A stretch of DNA of 64,000 bases from Gemmatimonadales bacterium (GTDB lineage: Bacteria; Gemmatimonadota; Gemmatimonadetes; Gemmatimonadales; GWC2-71-9). Position 1 is the first letter of the stretch. Each line of letters starts with the position of its first letter. The translations under genes and the position numbers were made by a program. Below, piece by piece: positions 37,911 to 59,865 of the stretch. The DNA lies in assembly GCA_035763805.1 (NCBI GenBank), contig DASUAL010000039.1, positions 20,465 to 84,464 of the forward strand, in the 5' to 3' direction. Under the pieces are notes generated by a model. That model had not been told where the DNA came from. It saw only the letters and a program-made list of their open reading frames with translations, and did no database searches.

Positions 37911-38015
37911 AATGCGGAATGCGGAGTGCGGAATGCGGAATTGAAATGGGAGGTCGATCACCGAACGACGCCCGACCTGACATTCCGCCTTCCCCATTCC
38001 GCATTCCGCATTCAT
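37911..38015. repeat. inverted arrays of the heptamer AATGCGG (about 32-nt arms) with an inner hairpin; likely terminator/processing structure after the MFS stop
   Basis: Left arm: AATGCGG AATGCGG AGTGCGG AATGCGG AATTG (37911-37943). Right arm: CATTCCG CCTTCCC CATTCCG CATTCCG CATT (37981-38012), reverse complement AATGCGGAATGCGGAATGGGGAAGGCGGAATG, about 28/31 match. Inner stem AGGTCG 37951-56 / CGACCT 37973-78. The right arm abuts the MFS stop at 38012-14. Confidence 0.8.
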
Positions 38016-39514
38016 GCTCTCACCCGCGCCATATCTCTTGCCACCGTCGTCAGCCCGATCAGGATCACCAGCCCCCCCACCGCTCCCGCAGTCGGAAGCA
38101 GCAGCATCGCCGGCCGGAGCCCGAACCGGTCGGAGAGGTACCCGACCAAAGGGGGTGCAATGGCGTCACCCGCGAGATGCGAGAACAGCACGTAGGCGCC
38201 GAGTACGGAGGCGCGGACCGCGGCCGGCACCACGTCCAGAATCACCGCGGAGAGCGGTCCGTTGTACCAGGTGTACAGGAAGAACGTCGCGAACAGAAGA
38301 GGCACGAACAGCTGCAACTCGTCGACTAGGAGCAACGCGGCGCACACCGGCCCGCCCAGCACGAATCCCGCTCCGCTCACGACGACGCGACCCCCAGGCC
38401 ACCGCTGCAGCAGCCAGTCGCCGACCCGGCCGCCGAACAGCGCCCCGAGGGCGCCCCCCGCGAGCCCCCAGAGCCCGAACTGGCGCCCCACCACCGCCAC
38501 CGAGAGGCCGTGCGTGCGCTGCATGAAGCTCGGTGCCCACGCGATGAGCCCGTTGACCGCAAACGTCACGAGCGCTCCGCCCAGGAACATCCAGATGAGC
38601 GTGGGCGTGCGGAGCACCGTGGCCGCCGCGTGCAGGAACTCGCCGTACGCCGTCGCCGCCACTTCCGTCGCTTCCGTGGTGCGCTGCACCGCGGCGGGAA
38701 TGAGTCGCACGACCGTCCAGACGATCCCGGCCGTGAGAAAGACGGCGAACACCCCTGTCTCGACCTCCGGAGGCGCGCCGAGCAGGTCGAGCACGCCGCT
38801 CAGCAGGGCGCCCACGAGCGCGAGGAGGATCATCGGTCTGCCGAGCTCCAGGGCCTGCCGCACTCCCCGTTCGGTCCAGCTCCGCACCGTCGCCGCGAGT
38901 GGCGCGGGCGGACGCCGGCGCGGCTCGCGCAGCCGCGACGCCAGGATCGTCAGGATGAACCCCGGCACGCCCATCGCCACGAACGCCGTCCGCCAGCCAT
39001 AGCGCTCGGCCAACACACCGCCCAGCCAGATCCCGAGCACGCCGCCGAACGCCATACCCACCGAGTAGATCCCGATGGCGAATGCCCGCCGGCGTCCTTC
39101 GTAGAACTCGGCGATGAGCGCCTGCGCCGCGGGCCCGTACCCTGCCTCGCCCACGCCCACCAGGGCGCGGCAAAACAGCAGCTGCCAAAACCGGTTCACC
39201 ACGGCGCCCAGCGCGGTGAAGGCGCTCCACAGCCCGACGCCGAACGCGATCACCGCGCGGCGGGAGCGCAAGTCGCCGATCACGCCGAGTGGCAGCGCCG
39301 CGAGCGACAGCACGATGACGTAGGCCGAGCCGAGCCAGCCGAGCTGCTGGTCGGAGAGCACGAGCTCGCGCTTGATGTGCTCGAACAGCGCGAAGATGAC
39401 GTTGCGATCGGTGTAGTTGAGGATGTTGATCAGCGTGAGGAGGGCCAGGGCGTACGCCGCATACGCCCCGGCGCCGCTCCCCCCGCGGGCGGGGCTAGGG
39501 TCTACGCCCGACAG
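38012..39514 (-). CDS. MFS transporter; true start upstream of the track start, probably CTG 39514
   Basis: The track ORF starts at GTG 39361 (..[14 protein letters not shown]). The in-frame upstream 51 codons encode ..[35 protein letters not shown], which is TM1 plus the MFS D-R-x-x loop. No ATG/GTG/TTG lies between that and the upstream stop. Body motifs [10 protein letters not shown] and 11-12 TM segments. Confidence 0.7.
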
Positions 39515-54705: not shown

Positions 54706-56577
54706 CTAGGCCACACGTCGACGCCAACGGGCCGTCTCGACCACGAGGTTGTGGAGATCGCTTGGCGACACGCCGGGAATCCGCGAGGCCTGGGCCAACG
54801 ATGTGGGGCGCACGCAGTCGAGCTTCTGGCGCGCCTCGGTCGCGAGGCTCTGGAACTCGAGGTAGGGGAGGTCGCCGGGAAGCGCGAAGGATGCCAACTC
54901 GGCCAGCCGCTTCGCCGCCTCCCGCTCGCGCGCCAGATAGCCGTCGTACTTGAGCTCGATCTCGGCGCTCGCGACGATTTCATCATCCTCTCCCGCAATC
55001 GCCACTCCCGCGGCCTCAAGCAGCGTGCGCAATACGACCCCGGGGCGACGCGCCACGCTCGCCACGCGCTCCGGCTCAGCCAGCCTCGTACCGGTGAGCG
55101 CGAGCGCTGGTCCTGCAGCGGCGGGCGTGATCGTCGTCCCCCGCGCCGTCTCAAGCAGCCGCTCCTCGGCCTCCAGCCGCCGCTCGCCCGTCCGCAACTC
55201 CGCGGCCGTCAGCAGGCCGAGCCGATCCGCGAGCGGGGCCAGCCGACGCAGCGCGTTGTCCTGCCGGAGCAGCAAACGGAACTCCGAGCGCGACGTGAAC
55301 AGGCGGTATGGCTCGTCCACGCCACGAGTGATCAGGTCGTCGACCAGCACCCCGATGTACGCATCGTCCCGGCCGAACACCACCGGCTCCTGCCCACGGA
55401 TGCGGCGCACCGCGTTGAGCCCCGCGACGATTCCCTGACCGGCCGCCTCTTCGTAGCCCGTGGTACCGTTGATCTGACCCGCGAAGAACAAGTGCTCGAT
55501 CGCCTTCGTCTCGAGCCAGGGCGTGAGCTGCGTCGGCGGGTAGTAGTCGTACTCGATCGCGTACCCGGGGCGAGTCATCTTCGCGCGCTCGAGCCCGGGG
55601 ACCGCGCGCAAGAACTCGAGCTGCACGGGGACGGGCAGGGAAGTGGACAGCCCGTTCACGTACAGCTCGTGGGTGTCCAGCCCCTCCGGCTCGAGAAACA
55701 CCTGGTGCCGCTTGGCATCGGGGAACTTGACGATCTTGTCCTCGACGGACGGACAGTAGCGCGGGCCCCGAGAGCTGATTGCGCCGCCGTAAAGCGCCGA
55801 CTCCCGCAGGTGCCGGGAGACGATGTCCTTCACCGCCTCGCCCGCCCATGTAATCCAGCACGGCCGCTGCGGTGGCAACTCGACCCGTTCGTAAAACGAG
55901 AAGTGGTAGTCCGTGCCGTCGCCGTCCTGCCGCTCGACCTGGGACCATTCCACGGTGCGGCCGTCCACGCGAGGCGGCGTTCCGGTCTTGAAGCGCGACA
56001 CTGTAAGTCCAAGTGATTCAATGTGTTGTGCGATCTGCACCGCGGGCTGGTCGCCCGCACGGCCCGCGGGAATCTGCGTGTCCGTGCCGAGGTGAATGCG
56101 CCCTCGCAGAAAGGTGCCGGCCGTGATTACCACGGCCCGCGCGGTGAAGCGGCGGCCGTCGGCGGTCTCGACGCCGCCCGCTCGCACGCCGTCGATCACG
56201 AGGCCCGACACCATCCCTTGCGCGAGCTCGAGCGTCGCGAACTCCTCGAGCAGCCGTCGCACGGCGCGCCGATACAGCGCACGATCGCACTGCGCCCGCG
56301 GAGCCCAGACAGCGGGGCCCTTCGAGCGGTTGAGCATGCGGAACTGAATCATGGCGCGGTCGGCCGCGCGACCCATGATGCCGCCGAGGGCATCGATCTC
56401 GCGCACGACGGTTCCCTTGGCGATCCCACCGATGGCGGGATTGCAGCTCATCTGGCCGATGGTGTCGAGGTTGGACGTGAGGAGGAGCGTCCGCGCGCCG
56501 AGGCGGGCCGCCATCACCGCCGCTTCGGAGCCGGCGTGGCCGGCACCGACGATGATCACGTCATAGTCGAAAGGCAT
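54706..56577 (-). CDS. mnmG: tRNA uridine-5-carboxymethylaminomethyl(34) synthesis enzyme MnmG (GidA)
   Basis: ATG 56577 (codon 15 of the track ORF). YDVIIVGAGHAGSEAA, SCNPAIGG, GQINGTTGYEEAA. Confidence 0.95.
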   Translation of the reverse strand: MPFDYDVIIVGAGHAGSEAAVMAARLGARTLLLTSNLDTIGQMSCNPAIGGIAKGTVVREIDALGGIMGRAADRAMIQFRMLNRSKGPAVWAPRAQCDRALYRRAVRRLLEEFATLELAQGMVSGLVIDGVRAGGVETADGRRFTARAVVITAGTFLRGRIHLGTDTQIPAGRAGDQPAVQIAQHIESLGLTVSRFKTGTPPRVDGRTVEWSQVERQDGDGTDYHFSFYERVELPPQRPCWITWAGEAVKDIVSRHLRESALYGGAISSRGPRYCPSVEDKIVKFPDAKRHQVFLEPEGLDTHELYVNGLSTSLPVPVQLEFLRAVPGLERAKMTRPGYAIEYDYYPPTQLTPWLETKAIEHLFFAGQINGTTGYEEAAGQGIVAGLNAVRRIRGQEPVVFGRDDAYIGVLVDDLITRGVDEPYRLFTSRSEFRLLLRQDNALRRLAPLADRLGLLTAAELRTGERRLEAEERLLETARGTTITPAAAGPALALTGTRLAEPERVASVARRPGVVLRTLLEAAGVAIAGEDDEIVASAEIELKYDGYLAREREAAKRLAELASFALPGDLPYLEFQSLATEARQKLDCVRPTSLAQASRIPGVSPSDLHNLVVETARWRRRVA

Positions 56578-56596
56578 GAGGACAAAGCTACGGGAC

Positions 56597-56629
56597 CAGG
56601 CAAGGCAAAAGCTAGACACGCAGACGCAC
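56597..56629. repeat. left inverted repeat flanking the four-helix-bundle gene
   Basis: CAGGCAAGGCAAAAGC-TAGACACGCAGACGCAC. The core at 56613-56629 is 16/17 complementary to 57106-57122. Confidence 0.7.
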
Positions 56630-56641
56630 GGCGGAGAACCG

Positions 56642-57055
56642 TCAACCGAGTTTGGTCGGCTTCGAAGCCAACTGGCTCACCTTCCGGAGAAGCCCGAACA
56701 GCGTCTTGCTGGTCTCCGTCGCGAGCGCTTCGAGACGCCCGTAGTCCGCAGGCTGCACATAGCCAACATTCCGAGCGATCGCCAGCACGGTCTGGACTTC
56801 GGCCAGCGATCCCCATGCGGTGTCGAGGAACTTTCGGCGCTCTCGCGTCCCTTTGCGGCTCGTGCCTTCTGCGATGTTGAGCGGAACGCTGTAACAAGCT
56901 CGACGAAGCTGGTCCGCGAGCGCGCCCTGCTCATATTCCGGAAAACGGCTCGCCGCCTTCACACATTCGACAGCGAGCCGCTGTGCGTGCTGCCAAGCTT
57001 TGAGGGTGTGGTGAATGGGCATGAGCACATGATGAGCATAATTCCGACGGGGCAC
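56642..57055 (-). CDS. four-helix-bundle protein (23S rRNA intervening-sequence protein / Avd-like family)
   Basis: ..LKAWQHAQRLAVECVKAASRFPEYEQGALADQLRRACYSVPLNIAEGTSRKGTRERRKFLDTAWGSLAEVQTVLAIARNVGYV.. is the characteristic pattern of this family. Start is GTG 57055 or ATG 57022. Confidence 0.8.
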   Translation of the reverse strand: MPRRNYAHHVLMPIHHTLKAWQHAQRLAVECVKAASRFPEYEQGALADQLRRACYSVPLNIAEGTSRKGTRERRKFLDTAWGSLAEVQTVLAIARNVGYVQPADYGRLEALATETSKTLFGLLRKVSQLASKPTKLG

Positions 57056-57105
57056 CCAACCGTTTCTACGCGAAGGGTGCCCCGTTTACGCGACGCTGCT
57101 TGCCT

Positions 57106-57135
57106 GTGCGTCTGCGCGTCTACCCTATGCCTGTC
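57106..57135. repeat. right inverted repeat flanking the four-helix-bundle gene
   Basis: GTGCGTCTGCGCGTCTA-CCCTATGCCTGTCC. The reverse complement GGACAGGCATAGGG-TAGACGCGCAGACGCAC matches the left repeat. It ends 1 nt before the ABC permease stop codon. Confidence 0.7.
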
Positions 57136-58404
57136 CTATCCGGCTCTCACCCACCTCACTATTTCCCCAAGACTCGGTCGCTTCCCCGTCATCAGAATCC
57201 CGACTCTGTAGATCCGCGCCGCCACCCAAGTCACAACGACGATCCCTAGTACGAGCAGCACAAGCGATGCGACCAGCTCGTTCGGCCCCACGCTTCCGGC
57301 CGCCCACCGCACCGGCATCGCGATCGGCGCCGTGAATGGGATCAGCGATAGCGCCACCGCGTACCCCGAGCCCGGGTCGTTCGCCAATGCGAATACCGAC
57401 AGGTACGCGATCATCAACAGGAACATCACGGGCTGCTGCGCCTGGCGCGCCTCCTGCTCGTTCGATGACATCGCGCCCACCGCAGCGAACATGGCGGAAT
57501 AGAGGAAGAACCCGCCGAGGAAGTACGCGAGAAAGACAGCGACCGTCGTGGCCGCGACGTGCGGCAACTGCAACGCGACCTGCTGGGTGGCGGCGTCCTC
57601 CGGTCCGAGATTCCCCAGGAGCGCGGCACGCTGCGTGAGCACGAGGCGTCCCCCCACTCCCCAGATCACGAACTGAAAGATCGACACCGCCCCCACGCCC
57701 ACGACCTTGCCGAGCATCAGCTGGAACGGCTTGAGCGATGATACGAGGACCTCGACGATGCGTGTCGTCTTCTCCTCCAGCACGGAGCTCATCACGTTCA
57801 CCCCGTACACCGCGATCACGACGAACAGCACGATCGACATGACGTAGGCGAGCCAGAAGGATTGCGCCGAGCTCTCCCCCGTGGTCTTGAACCCCGAGAT
57901 CTTCTTCGTCGCGAGATTGACGCTGATCTGCGCCCGGCTTACGGTGCGCGGATCCACGCCGGCGCGCTCGAGCCGCGCGTTCACTGCTAGCCGGCCGAGC
58001 ACGCCTCGCAGCTCGTCGATGTCTCGGAACGACGAAATATTCGACGCGCGGTATTCAGCCGCTCCGCCCTCCACCGTCGTGTCGCTGACGATGAGGAACC
58101 CGTGCAGCCGGTTGGCGCCGACCTCGCTGGTCAGCGAATCGAGCAGCCCGGCGCGCGGCGGTGTCCGGGCCACGATCCAGAATGTCCGGCCCCGCATGAG
58201 GGTGTCCGCGACGCGCGCCCCGAACCCCGTGTTGGTGCCGTCCACGACCACGATGCGCTTCGCGCCGCCCGAGGCCGCGAGCCGAAGCGGGATGATGATG
58301 ATCGCGCCGAAGAACACGGGCCCCAGCACGGCCGAGATCCAAAACCACCTGCTCCGGATCCGCTCGACGAACTCGCGCCGTACCACGGCCCAAACCTTAC
58401 GCAT
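57136..58404 (-). CDS. ABC-2-type transporter permease
   Basis: N-terminal TM, large extracytoplasmic loop, then 5 C-terminal TM segments (NatB-like layout). 8-nt overlap with the ATPase gene. Confidence 0.75.
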   Translation of the reverse strand: MRKVWAVVRREFVERIRSRWFWISAVLGPVFFGAIIIIPLRLAASGGAKRIVVVDGTNTGFGARVADTLMRGRTFWIVARTPPRAGLLDSLTSEVGANRLHGFLIVSDTTVEGGAAEYRASNISSFRDIDELRGVLGRLAVNARLERAGVDPRTVSRAQISVNLATKKISGFKTTGESSAQSFWLAYVMSIVLFVVIAVYGVNVMSSVLEEKTTRIVEVLVSSLKPFQLMLGKVVGVGAVSIFQFVIWGVGGRLVLTQRAALLGNLGPEDAATQQVALQLPHVAATTVAVFLAYFLGGFFLYSAMFAAVGAMSSNEQEARQAQQPVMFLLMIAYLSVFALANDPGSGYAVALSLIPFTAPIAMPVRWAAGSVGPNELVASLVLLVLGIVVVTWVAARIYRVGILMTGKRPSLGEIVRWVRAG

Positions 58405-59365
58405 CCGGCCGTGCCTCGGCCCGGGCCGCGTCGGGACCCACGAGGTCGATGAAGATCTTGTTGAGCGACGGCTCCTCGAGCTCGAACTTGGCGAGCCGCG
58501 CCCCCGACGCGACGAGCGCCTGCAGGATCTGCTGCGGGTCGGCGCCGGGTGCGAGCTCCAGCTCGGCGTACTGGCCGTAGTCGTCGGCCTTCTTCACAAG
58601 TCGTGTGTCGGCAAAGACTTGTGCCGCAGCCCCTGAACTGCCGTCGAACCCGATGATCAGATGCTGTCCGCCGTGTGTCCGCTTGATGTCGCCAAGCGCG
58701 CCGTCCACGACCTTCCTTCCCCGCGCGATGATGCACAGCTGGTCGCACAGCTTCTCCGCCTGCTCCATGATGTGGGTCGAAAAGAGCAGGGTGACCCCGC
58801 GGCGCCGCAGCTCGAGCACCGTATCCTTCAGCACTTGCGCGTTGACCGGATCGAGCCCCGCGAACGGCTCGTCCAGGATCACGAGCTCCGGCTCGTGCAG
58901 CAAGGTGGCGATGAACTGAACCTTCTGCTGCATCCCCTTTGACAGCTCGTCGATCCGCCGCAGTCGCCAGTCAGCGAGCCCGAGCCGCTCGAGCCACGCG
59001 AGCCCTTTCGCCCGCGCGACACGCCGCTCGACACCCTTCATTTCCGCGAGAAACACGAGCACGTCCAAGACCCGCATCTTGCGGTACAGGCCGCGCTCCT
59101 CGGGGAGGTAGCCGATCCGTGCGGTCTGCGTTCGCCCGCCGCCGCACTCGCCGAACAGCCGTACGGTTCCCTCGTCCGGCTCGATGATGTCCATGATCAT
59201 GCGGATCGAGGTGGTCTTCCCGGCGCCGTTGGGTCCCAGCAAGCCGAAGATGACCCCGGGCTGCACAGCGAGGGCCAGCCCGTCCACTGCCGTGTGGCCG
59301 GCGAACCGCTTGGTGACGCGGTCGAGAACGACAATCGGTGCGGGGGCGGGGGCGGGGGCGGGCAC
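58397..59365 (-). CDS. ABC transporter ATP-binding protein
   Basis: GTG 59365 (in frame) gives (M)PAPAPAPAPIVVLDRVTKRF. Walker A GLLGPNGAGKTT, signature LSKGMQQK, Walker B LVILDEP. Confidence 0.85.
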   Translation of the reverse strand: MPAPAPAPAPIVVLDRVTKRFAGHTAVDGLALAVQPGVIFGLLGPNGAGKTTSIRMIMDIIEPDEGTVRLFGECGGGRTQTARIGYLPEERGLYRKMRVLDVLVFLAEMKGVERRVARAKGLAWLERLGLADWRLRRIDELSKGMQQKVQFIATLLHEPELVILDEPFAGLDPVNAQVLKDTVLELRRRGVTLLFSTHIMEQAEKLCDQLCIIARGRKVVDGALGDIKRTHGGQHLIIGFDGSSGAAAQVFADTRLVKKADDYGQYAELELAPGADPQQILQALVASGARLAKFELEEPSLNKIFIDLVGPDAARAEARPDA

Positions 59366-59421
59366 GGCGAAGGCTAATCTCCAGCGGAGGAGGGGAAGAG
59401 GGAAGGGGACGCGCTCGGCGC

Positions 59422-59865
59422 CTACGTCTTCACGGCATCGGTCAGCGCATTCCAGGGCAGAAGCGCGCACTTGATGCGCACCGGGAACTTGGACACACCG
59501 GCGAGCGCGCGCAGCTCGCCCAGCGCCTTGTCCCGCGCCGCCGCGTCGTCCCCCTGCATCATCGCGCTCATGCGCTCGGCCAGGGCGACCGCCTGTGGAA
59601 TGGACTTGTCCTTCAGGAGCTGAGTCATCATCGACGCCGACGCCTGGCTGATGGAGCAGCCTCGGCCGATGAAGCGCGCGTCCTTGATCACGTCGCCGTC
59701 GACCCGCAGCTGCAGGTCGATCTCGTCGCCGCACAGCGGATTGTTGAGCGACACCGTGTGCGTCGCGTCATCGAGCGTCCCCTTGTTGCGAGGACGCCGG
59801 TAGTGATCGAGAATCAGCTCCTGATAGAGCGCACTGAGCCTGGGCTCAGGCGGGGACGTATCCAA
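59422..59865 (-). CDS. sufU: SUF-system NifU/IscU-like Fe-S scaffold (SufU-type)
   Basis: TTG 59865 (in frame), 20-nt overlap with sufS. LYQELILDHYRRPRN, NPLCGDEI, GRGCSISQASASMM. Confidence 0.8.
   Translation of the reverse strand: MDTSPPEPRLSALYQELILDHYRRPRNKGTLDDATHTVSLNNPLCGDEIDLQLRVDGDVIKDARFIGRGCSISQASASMMTQLLKDKSIPQAVALAERMSAMMQGDDAAARDKALGELRALAGVSKFPVRIKCALLPWNALTDAVKT

Follow-up and report, generated by a model that had tools for sequence, protein, structure and literature searches.

An inverted-repeat-boxed four-helix-bundle gene upstream of mnmG in Gemmatimonadales, a candidate guest cassette of the intervening-sequence type

The boxed gene and its place upstream of mnmG

In a 64,000-nucleotide stretch of a Gemmatimonadales genome (contig DASUAL010000039.1; the whole stretch is called the window below), a short gene for a four-helix-bundle protein lies between an ABC-2 permease gene and mnmG and is enclosed on both sides by arms of an inverted repeat (Table 1). 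We refer to the gene with its arms as the cassette. The protein belongs to PF05635 (E 2.7e-29, 102 bits against a Pfam cut-off of 33.8) and to TIGR02436 (97.3 bits, cut-off 24), and phmmer aligns its residues 3-92 with XCC0516, a solved, pentameric four-helix bundle (PDB 2GSC, E 2.1e-15). Eight divergent members share the invariant residues R40, Y43, S44, P46, L47, N48, I49, E51, and G52, which form a core R..YS.PLNI.EG consistent with the RxxxSxxxNxxE motif quoted in PMC3936711. The ATG is the start used by orthologues, and the 137-aa form that begins at an in-frame GTG is an upstream extension. Members of the family are annotated as "four helix bundle protein" or "S23 ribosomal protein"; the family has been called uncharacterised (PMC11270868; PMC4990558), and a function has been assigned only to Avd of diversity-generating retroelements (DGRs). 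An identical protein is on record from a Gemmatimonadales metagenome-assembled genome (MAG), and the PADLOC defence models gave no match to the cassette.

Table 1. Features of the cassette and its immediate neighbours (window coordinates)
Feature	Position	Strand	Remarks
mnmG	54706..56577	minus	downstream neighbour, constant across loci; Pfam GIDA, E 1.6e-155
Inverted-repeat arm, 3' side of gene	56598..56643		core 17-mer 56613-56629; starts at the stop codon of the gene
Four-helix-bundle protein gene (PF05635/TIGR02436)	56642..57022	minus	126 aa from the ATG at 57022
Alternative in-frame GTG start	57055	minus	would give 137 aa
-10-like hexamer CATCAT	57029..57034	minus	6 nt before the ATG; no Shine-Dalgarno sequence; proposed promoter
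Perfect 11-bp hairpin/palindrome	57047-57057 with 57075-57085	minus	upstream of the -10-like element
Direct repeat, 12-14-nt motif	57060..57094	minus	gene sense GCGTAAACGG ... GCGTAGAAACGG
Inverted-repeat arm, 5' side of gene (gene sense)	57092..57137		core 17-mer 57106-57122; about two copies of the AGACGCNC octamer
ABC-2 permease	57136..58404	minus	variable upstream neighbour; Pfam ABC2_membrane_3, E 8e-39

The cassette protein is under strong purifying selection. Across 322 pairs the median ratio of nonsynonymous to synonymous substitution rates (dN/dS) is 0.033, and we therefore take the protein to be functional and strongly constrained. An earlier note on this DNA, made from the letters alone, had remarked on the lower GC content of the block, and this holds: 0.616 against 0.688 for the window, with GC at third codon positions (GC3) of 0.69 in the gene against 0.86-0.91 in mnmG, the ABC permease gene, parA, and sufS. 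The low GC3 is nevertheless no peculiarity of this block, since the cassette gene lies below its neighbours in 90% of loci, a property of the whole family.

Homologues with 56-90% amino-acid identity were gathered from context look-ups, a scan of species-representative genomes (76 loci), and a scan of metagenomes (80 loci); the latter used a diverse alignment aimed at other phyla and returned close orthologues only. The labels L001-L202 denote the individual loci compared. About 170 Gemmatimonadales loci have the boxed gene next to mnmG on its upstream side, and tblastn mapping places it immediately ahead of mnmG-parA-parB in almost all genome and metagenome loci. At 85% nucleotide identity the cassette genes of 177 loci, nearly all of them at the mnmG site, fall into 77 clusters. 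The window neighbourhood comprises sufS, nifU, the ABC pair, mnmG, parA, and parB; the usual upstream neighbour is the ABC-2 permease, replaced by NifU in L001 and L002, which have no ABC pair. Among the sampled Gemmatimonadales, all lineages with the cassette thus have it tied to mnmG. The first reading of the locus, an insertion exactly between the ABC exporter and mnmG, does not stand as a recent event, because the cassette is found upstream of mnmG throughout the sampled MAGs, including those without the ABC pair; it is a long-standing resident. The same note had set a mobile cassette against vertical conservation at the composition of its neighbours. Vertical conservation is what we find at the mnmG locus, whereas the shared composition is not, GC3 being lower as described.

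The NifU stop codon in L001 and L002 abuts the cassette at the same CTAGGAC boundary that adjoins the ABC pair (57136-59734) in the window, from which we conclude that an indel precisely at the edge of the cassette accounts for the presence or absence of the 2.3-kb ABC pair. Several MAGs contain two or three complete abc-cassette-mnmG loci of differing sequence (L060, L061, and L092 in one, L055 and L058 in another), which more likely reflect mixed bins than true paralogy; L092 has frameshifts in both abc and mnmG.

The arms, their pairing, and the control region

The core of the 3'-side arm is the 17-mer TAGACACGCAGACGCAC, and its complement in the 5'-side arm matches at 16 of 17 positions, just as the earlier note had reported. 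The weaker extension to about 30 bp described there is real and the length is greater: a repeat search gives arms of 46 nt each with 74% complementarity. The distance of 20 nt between the 3'-side arm and the mnmG ATG (56575-56577) is likewise as described, whereas the extended 5'-side arm does not end just short of the permease stop codon (57136-57138) but overlaps it, with the core 17-mer 13 nt away. When up to three mismatches are allowed, the 17-mer occurs in the 64 kb only at the two arm sites; shuffled controls average 0.24 matches, and 2 of 100 shuffles reach two. The minimum-energy fold of the minus-strand RNA from 56570 to 57145 pairs both ends (z = -4.6, equalled by none of 100 shuffles). 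Among orthologues, the arm motif TAGACGCACAGACGCAC (three or fewer mismatches) is present in about 35 loci, on the plus strand 93-125 nt upstream of the start and on the minus strand 12-21 nt downstream of the stop, and almost nowhere else within the 6-kb orthologous loci. Duplexes between the two flanks were compared with those of shuffled flanks at 77 loci and are stronger at nearly all of them (median z -6.9), paralogues at a second locus described below included.

Complementarity of the arms is maintained as their sequence changes. The stem was defined manually in 45 aligned cassettes and tested against shuffled and slid controls: the core helix is 86% paired, changes on both sides are seen in 14 of its 25 pairs, all five co-variation measures exceed 500 of 500 shuffles, and sliding the partner columns lowers pairing from 78% to 32-42%. 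Matched changes can be read directly in single loci, such as CTAGGCCACAGACGCAC / GTGCGTCTGTGGCCTAG in L039 and CTAGACGGACAGACGGCC / GGCCGTCTGTCCGCCTAG in L036. The arms therefore stay complementary because both change together. RNAalifold, run on full cassettes, recovered just seven pairs of the long-range stem, owing to indels in the arms.

The arms are built of tandem octamers whose unit differs by clade: AGACGCAC in the main clade, GCCGAGNC in a second clade at the same mnmG locus, and GGGGCTAA in the second-locus paralogues. Copy number varies as well, in 22-nt multiples in L023, L032, L035, L042, and L047. The arms are constrained in sequence as well as in complementarity; in a single clade the arms (CTAGACGCACAGACGC) have changed far less than the open reading frame (ORF), which falls to about 70% nucleotide identity. 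The second conserved locus in Gemmatimonadales (L088-L091, L093) holds a paralogue with 57-64% identity beside DUF2203-like and patatin-like genes, antisense to its neighbours and with arms of its own, (GGGGCTAA)n.

Rfam returned nothing relevant for the window and the paralogue loci at the gathering threshold or for the cassette at permissive E-values. A terminator scan gave one weak match, a 5-pair stem within the arm. For integron cores, checked by eye, GTAAAC and GTTGAC near the ends of the ORF deviate from RYYYAAC / GTTRRRY, and the neighbouring genes include no integrase.

Between the 5' arm and the ATG lies what is most likely an internal promoter that would give a leaderless mRNA, as judged from the conservation of a -10-like element. 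Of 79 loci, 45 have an exact TAnnnT that begins between -11 and -15 relative to the start codon, CAnnnT is seen by eye in others, and in most of the 79 one of the two ends 6 nt ahead of the ATG or GTG with no Shine-Dalgarno sequence; the consensus has T at -12 (0.61), A at -11 (0.58), and T at -7 (0.67). A standard sigma-70 promoter scan returned 0 sites. A promoter of its own would explain how the gene survives in both orientations upstream of mnmG and, at the paralogue locus, on the strand opposite to the adjacent genes. The window's mnmG likewise has a TAGnTT-type hexamer, TAGCTT, 7 nt before its ATG and no Shine-Dalgarno sequence (56575-56600; compare 57020-57034 for the cassette gene), and the two hexamers together suggest that leaderless mRNAs are used in this organism.

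Two smaller features of this region had been recorded in the earlier note. A 7-bp hairpin over the GTG is present and is in fact longer, with 11 perfect pairs. Across the 45 aligned cassettes its positions are just 64% paired, and the region compared with shuffles across loci gives a median z of -0.23, so that we reject it as a generally conserved RNA structure. The direct repeat CCGTTTCTACGCGA / CCGTTTACGCGA is present as recorded, and by eye the orthologues show related motifs, GCGnGTAAACGG ... GAAATGG, in matching alignment columns.

Inversion, replacement, and decay of the unit

The gene and its arms evolve as a block apart from their neighbours: the block is flipped, exchanged between hosts, and occasionally decays, which bears out the suspicion of a self-contained cassette inasmuch as gene and arms are inverted and replaced as one unit. 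The cassette gene is inverted between the same neighbours at 12 loci (5 of the 76 genome loci and 7 of the 80 metagenome loci). In pairwise BLAST the inverted block measures about 560-600 bp, its ends coincide with the arms, and the flanks are collinear; between L081 and L080, for example, flanks of 85.5% and 86% identity surround about 580 bp in opposite orientation. Simple inversion is rejected as a full account, however, since inverted cassettes are just 69-80% identical to the nearest cassette in the same orientation despite flanks that are up to 98% identical. Inverted L049 compared with L112 has nucleotide identities of 98.4% in mnmG, 97.2% in the ABC gene, and 71% in the cassette gene; for inverted L047 and L132 the figures are 93.3%, 96.4%, and 69.7%, and for the window and its relative L034 they are 95.4%, 92%, and 76%. 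The converse also occurs, with cassette genes 92-93% identical in hosts whose mnmG genes are about 82% identical, and over 108 non-redundant loci the distances of cassette and mnmG have a Spearman rank correlation of 0.32. L049 and L112 lose their high identity about 20 nt or less from the end of the ABC gene and regain it exactly with the mnmG ATG; the whole spacer is therefore the exchanged block.

Both orientations are found between lineages, always with 20-30% sequence divergence, and no recombinase gene is adjacent. The opposite orientations thus appear in the sequences as old alternative states or replacements and not as an active switch. Invertons and phase-variable promoters resemble the cassette in being segments bounded by inverted repeats that occur in both orientations between the same genes; on present evidence the cassette does not look like an active inverton, given the divergence of the two orientations and the lack of an adjacent invertase.

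The cassette is also dispensable despite the strong constraint on its protein. We examined the context of five MnmG homologues, 85-95% identical to that of the window and chosen regardless of the cassette, which gave seven loci. The cassette gene is intact in three of the five look-ups (L192-L195). At L189/L190, whose MnmG is 95% identical to the window's, an in-frame internal deletion has removed about 52 aa and both arms are kept; at L191 the last 45 nt or so of the ORF and the mnmG-side arm remain, with unrelated genes upstream. L034 shows the loss of the upstream arm with the gene kept. A clean empty site upstream of mnmG in relatives, such as the earlier note had envisaged, was not found among the five look-ups, which gave only decayed cassettes in its place. 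The unit is thus strongly selected yet exchangeable.

Relatives in other phyla and the role of the arms

Relatives beyond the clade, sampled through plasmid records and Bacteroidota look-ups, are boxed in the same manner: 7-8-nt tandem arrays flank the gene on both sides in 15 of 15, in clear inverted order in most. Cyanobacterial plasmids hold the gene (x) as cas6-x-cas4, cmr2-x-cmr3, integrase-x, and parA-like-x-parB, with arrays such as GGGTGTA / CTACACC in Calothrix and GGGAAAA / CCCTTTTC in Nostoc and Geminocystis. In Chitinophagaceae it lies in the arginine operon as argG-x-argC, argC-x-argD, or argD-x-argF according to genus, between arrays of (AAAGCNN)n or (TAATGCN)n that can overlap the called ends of the neighbouring ORFs. 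On an Azospirillum plasmid (L186), GAGGACG / GTCTTCT arrays surround the ORF within a true intervening sequence (IVS) of 23S rRNA helix 45.

The Chitinophagaceae homologues (L098, L196, L197, L198-L202) are always within the arginine biosynthesis operon while the spacer varies by genus, and L098 has two copies, argC-x-argD-x-argF; the pattern is suggestive of hopping inside a single operon or of capture on several occasions. Three of the cyanobacterial plasmid members (L182, L185, L187) stand between cas6 and cas4 or between cmr2 and cmr3. A statistical association of the domain with CRISPR-Cas loci has been reported (PMC3936711; PMC10910872), and guest cassettes lodged in operon spacers may account for it instead of a Cas function.

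The earlier note had proposed kinship with the ORF-bearing IVSs of 23S rRNA, and the Azospirillum helix-45 IVS, which has the same arm design, supports it. Cassette and IVS (known from Leptospira, Coxiella burnetii, where the protein is S23p, Brucella, and Xanthomonas, as well as Azospirillum L186) have in common a PF05635 protein, an ORF in the loop of a long inverted-repeat stem and sense to the host transcript, and short tandem repeats in the arms: the 5' arm of the Coxiella IVS, which RNase III excises at the stem, carries the heptamer GACAGAT three times (PMC4990558). IVSs are also regarded as selfish, horizontally moved elements. The cassette differs in that it resides in an mRNA spacer upstream of mnmG and not in helix 25 or 45 (in the window nothing in Rfam, rRNA families included, scores above threshold), in that its ORF is intact with a dN/dS of 0.03 whereas the Coxiella ORF is decaying and probably untranslated (PMC4990558), in most likely having its own promoter and occurring in both orientations, and in being fixed at one locus in all sampled Gemmatimonadales lineages that carry it.

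A second likeness is to Neisseria Correia elements and to repeats of the repetitive extragenic palindrome (REP) or miniature inverted-repeat transposable element (MITE) type, which are intergenic and whose terminal inverted repeats fold when transcription reads through them. RNase III cuts Correia elements. Elements of these kinds are short and non-coding, with many nearly identical copies in a genome, unlike the cassette with its conserved protein gene, and we reject a multi-copy element of this type for the window on the basis that the 17-mer is confined to the two arms.

Weighing these comparisons, we lean, with some reserve, towards an intervening-sequence-type guest cassette in an mRNA spacer, whose arms would pair in read-through RNA. 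The unit would consist of a 5' arm of tandem 8-nt repeats, a control region with the -10-like element followed by the 126-aa gene, and a reverse-complement 3' arm. In a transcript crossing from the neighbouring gene the arms would pair into a duplex of about 35-45 bp with the guest gene looped out, and RNase III, which is specific for double strands, would cut that duplex, as experiments on 23S IVSs have demonstrated there; the guest would then be detached from the host RNA, which would make residence in operons or in rRNA harmless. The protein would probably be made from its own leaderless transcript and, by analogy with Avd, would probably bind the repeat arms of its own element. Avd (bAvd, PDB 4DWL), of the same four-helix-bundle superfamily, makes contact with DGR RNA, whose segments on the upstream and downstream sides of the template form a duplex with each other (bioRxiv 10.1101/2023.10.23.563531); a protein that holds flanking RNA could be modelled on this binding of structured RNA by Avd. 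As DNA, the arms could serve as short inverted homologies that permit the cassette to invert. Of the 65 same-orientation loci, 45 give a stronger whole-flank duplex on the strand transcribed with the host operon than on the other (Wilcoxon p 0.0016, uncorrected for relatedness), and among five inverted loci this preference is reversed in three, kept in one, and tied in one.

Several observations weigh against pairing in read-through RNA as the role of the arms. Mismatches in the core stem of same-orientation loci are G·U and A·C equally often (56 and 55); selection on an RNA helix in the sense strand would favour G·U, so the equal counts do not point to selection on an RNA stem and make a DNA-level, terminal-repeat-like role of the arms a serious rival. 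Cleavage by RNase III is proposed purely by analogy. A transcript of the gene's own that starts at the ATG would lack the 5' arm, and stem formation would then be confined to read-through RNA. The second-locus paralogues, though antisense to the genes beside them, have kept their arms, and within a clade the arms are better conserved than the ORF, which suggests sequence-specific recognition beyond pairing. The nearest arrays in Pseudanabaena and on plasmid 1 of Gemmatirosa kalamazoonensis, where they are octamers, are in direct order, with opposite-orientation arrays nearby. Finally, the breakpoints of exchange lie in the ends of the flanking genes, outside the arms, and the exchange may therefore be ordinary homologous recombination and not something that the element itself brings about.

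The rival account would have the arms act on DNA, as terminal inverted repeats or as iteron-like protein-binding arrays that mediate inversion, capture, and exchange. The binder would perhaps be the four-helix-bundle protein itself or a recombinase encoded elsewhere, and complementarity would be a by-product of a binding specificity shared by both ends or of gene conversion. We consider this possible, if on the unlikely side. It accommodates the equal mismatch counts, the far greater conservation of the arms than of the ORF within a clade, and the variable copy number of the tandem 7-8-nt units, and under it one can understand why protein clades each have a unit of their own (AGACGCAC, GCCGAGNC, GGGGCTAA, AAAGCNN), why inversions are bounded by the arms, why an antisense gene at the paralogue locus still has its arms, and why two loci have arrays in direct order. 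It fits less well with the absence of an accompanying recombinase or transposase gene, of an identified target-site duplication, and of further copies of the arm 17-mer in the window, or with replacement breakpoints outside the arms and opposite orientations that are deeply diverged (69-80% identity) and not actively switching. The same design, moreover, acts as an RNA stem in 23S rRNA (PMC4990558), and the modest bias in duplex stability is towards the strand transcribed with the host operon.

That the gene is an ordinary, vertically inherited host gene with a role tied to the mnmG/par locus, its inverted repeat an operator, terminator, or insulator and its discordant phylogeny the product of normal homologous recombination among soil Gemmatimonadales, we judge improbable. 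The fixed position upstream of mnmG across the sampled MAGs, the dN/dS of 0.033, and the exchange breakpoints within flanking genes would all be expected of such a gene, and the Chitinophagaceae homologues are likewise bound to one operon. Against this, their position within the arginine operon varies between genera, the same boxed design recurs in unrelated contexts of other phyla and in rRNA, and in Gemmatimonadales the gene is lost or truncated in two of five MnmG relatives (L189, L191), occupies both orientations, keeps a GC3 persistently below that of its neighbours, and is about 30% divergent between hosts whose flanks differ by 2-3%. An orphan Avd, whether a relic or a trans-acting part of a DGR, is highly improbable, and we reject a DGR reading: a distant relation to the Avd equivalog model NF033474 is detectable (E 0.0047) and some Bacteroidota homologues give weak matches to PF22296 bAvd, but the score of 17.2 bits falls far below the NF033474 cut-off of 80, the window has no long direct repeat that could be a template/variable repeat pair, the neighbours in about 170 loci, which are NifU, ABC, MnmG, ParA, and ParB in those with precomputed Pfam calls, include no reverse transcriptase, and the gene is conserved at one locus throughout the sampled Gemmatimonadales MAGs.

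If the guest-cassette reading is right, it may extend beyond Gemmatimonadales. The ORF-in-repeat-stem design occurs in mRNA spacers of Gemmatimonadota, Bacteroidota, and Cyanobacteriota as well as in the Azospirillum 23S IVS. The origin and purpose of rRNA IVSs have been called unclear (PMC4990558), and a design common to mRNA spacers and 23S rRNA ties that puzzle to the puzzle of the protein family. One could speculate, and we regard this as rather unlikely as a whole, that PF05635 genes with inverted 7-8-nt arrays form a widespread, unrecognised class of guest cassettes, of which 23S IVSs would be the rRNA-resident minority, that the protein recognises its own arms in RNA or DNA and so promotes persistence or spread, and that ORF-less paired arrays in cyanobacteria, Xanthomonas, and Gemmatimonadales are footprints or empty versions. 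In the literature that we searched, whose coverage is incomplete (few subscription journals and no original Leptospira papers), no description of repeat arrays around non-rRNA PF05635 members was found, and we therefore make only a moderate claim to novelty.

The last part of this speculation would suggest a possible source for some unexplained heptamer arrays. Paired inverted arrays with no known function have been described in Xanthomonas and Nostoc (GGGAATC, GGGGAYT; Rehm et al., 2015, PMC4692102). Like the cassette arms, these and the short tandemly repeated repetitive (STRR) heptamers of cyanobacteria are intergenic 7-nt tandem arrays, often two and convergent, that could form a stem-loop, and the length of the Xanthomonas and Nostoc arrays differs between close relatives. 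The difference is that PMC4692102 makes no mention of an enclosed gene or of the PF05635 family, whereas the cassette arrays enclose a PF05635 gene and travel with it. The window has an ORF-less example of its own at 37911-38012, a hairpin in which (AATGCGGA)x4 faces (TTCCGCAT)x3 across a 40-nt loop and whose two arrays are the top-scoring period-7/8 arrays of the window. It begins at the stop of a major-facilitator-superfamily-like gene (38012..39361, minus strand) and lies upstream of an ATP-grasp gene, and its repeat, which translates as IPHSAFRIPH, is also found upstream of a patatin gene in L093. The hairpin may be an empty, gene-less version of the cassette design.

A practical consequence concerns annotation. 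Cassettes can pass for members of an operon or a cas locus when they may be guests, and gene callers run neighbouring genes into the arrays. Start and stop annotations beside cassettes are unreliable for this reason: mechanical ORFs or gene calls extend into the arrays in L093 and in argD and argF of L198, and in the window a GTG-extended mnmG ORF (54706-56619) reaches into the arm.

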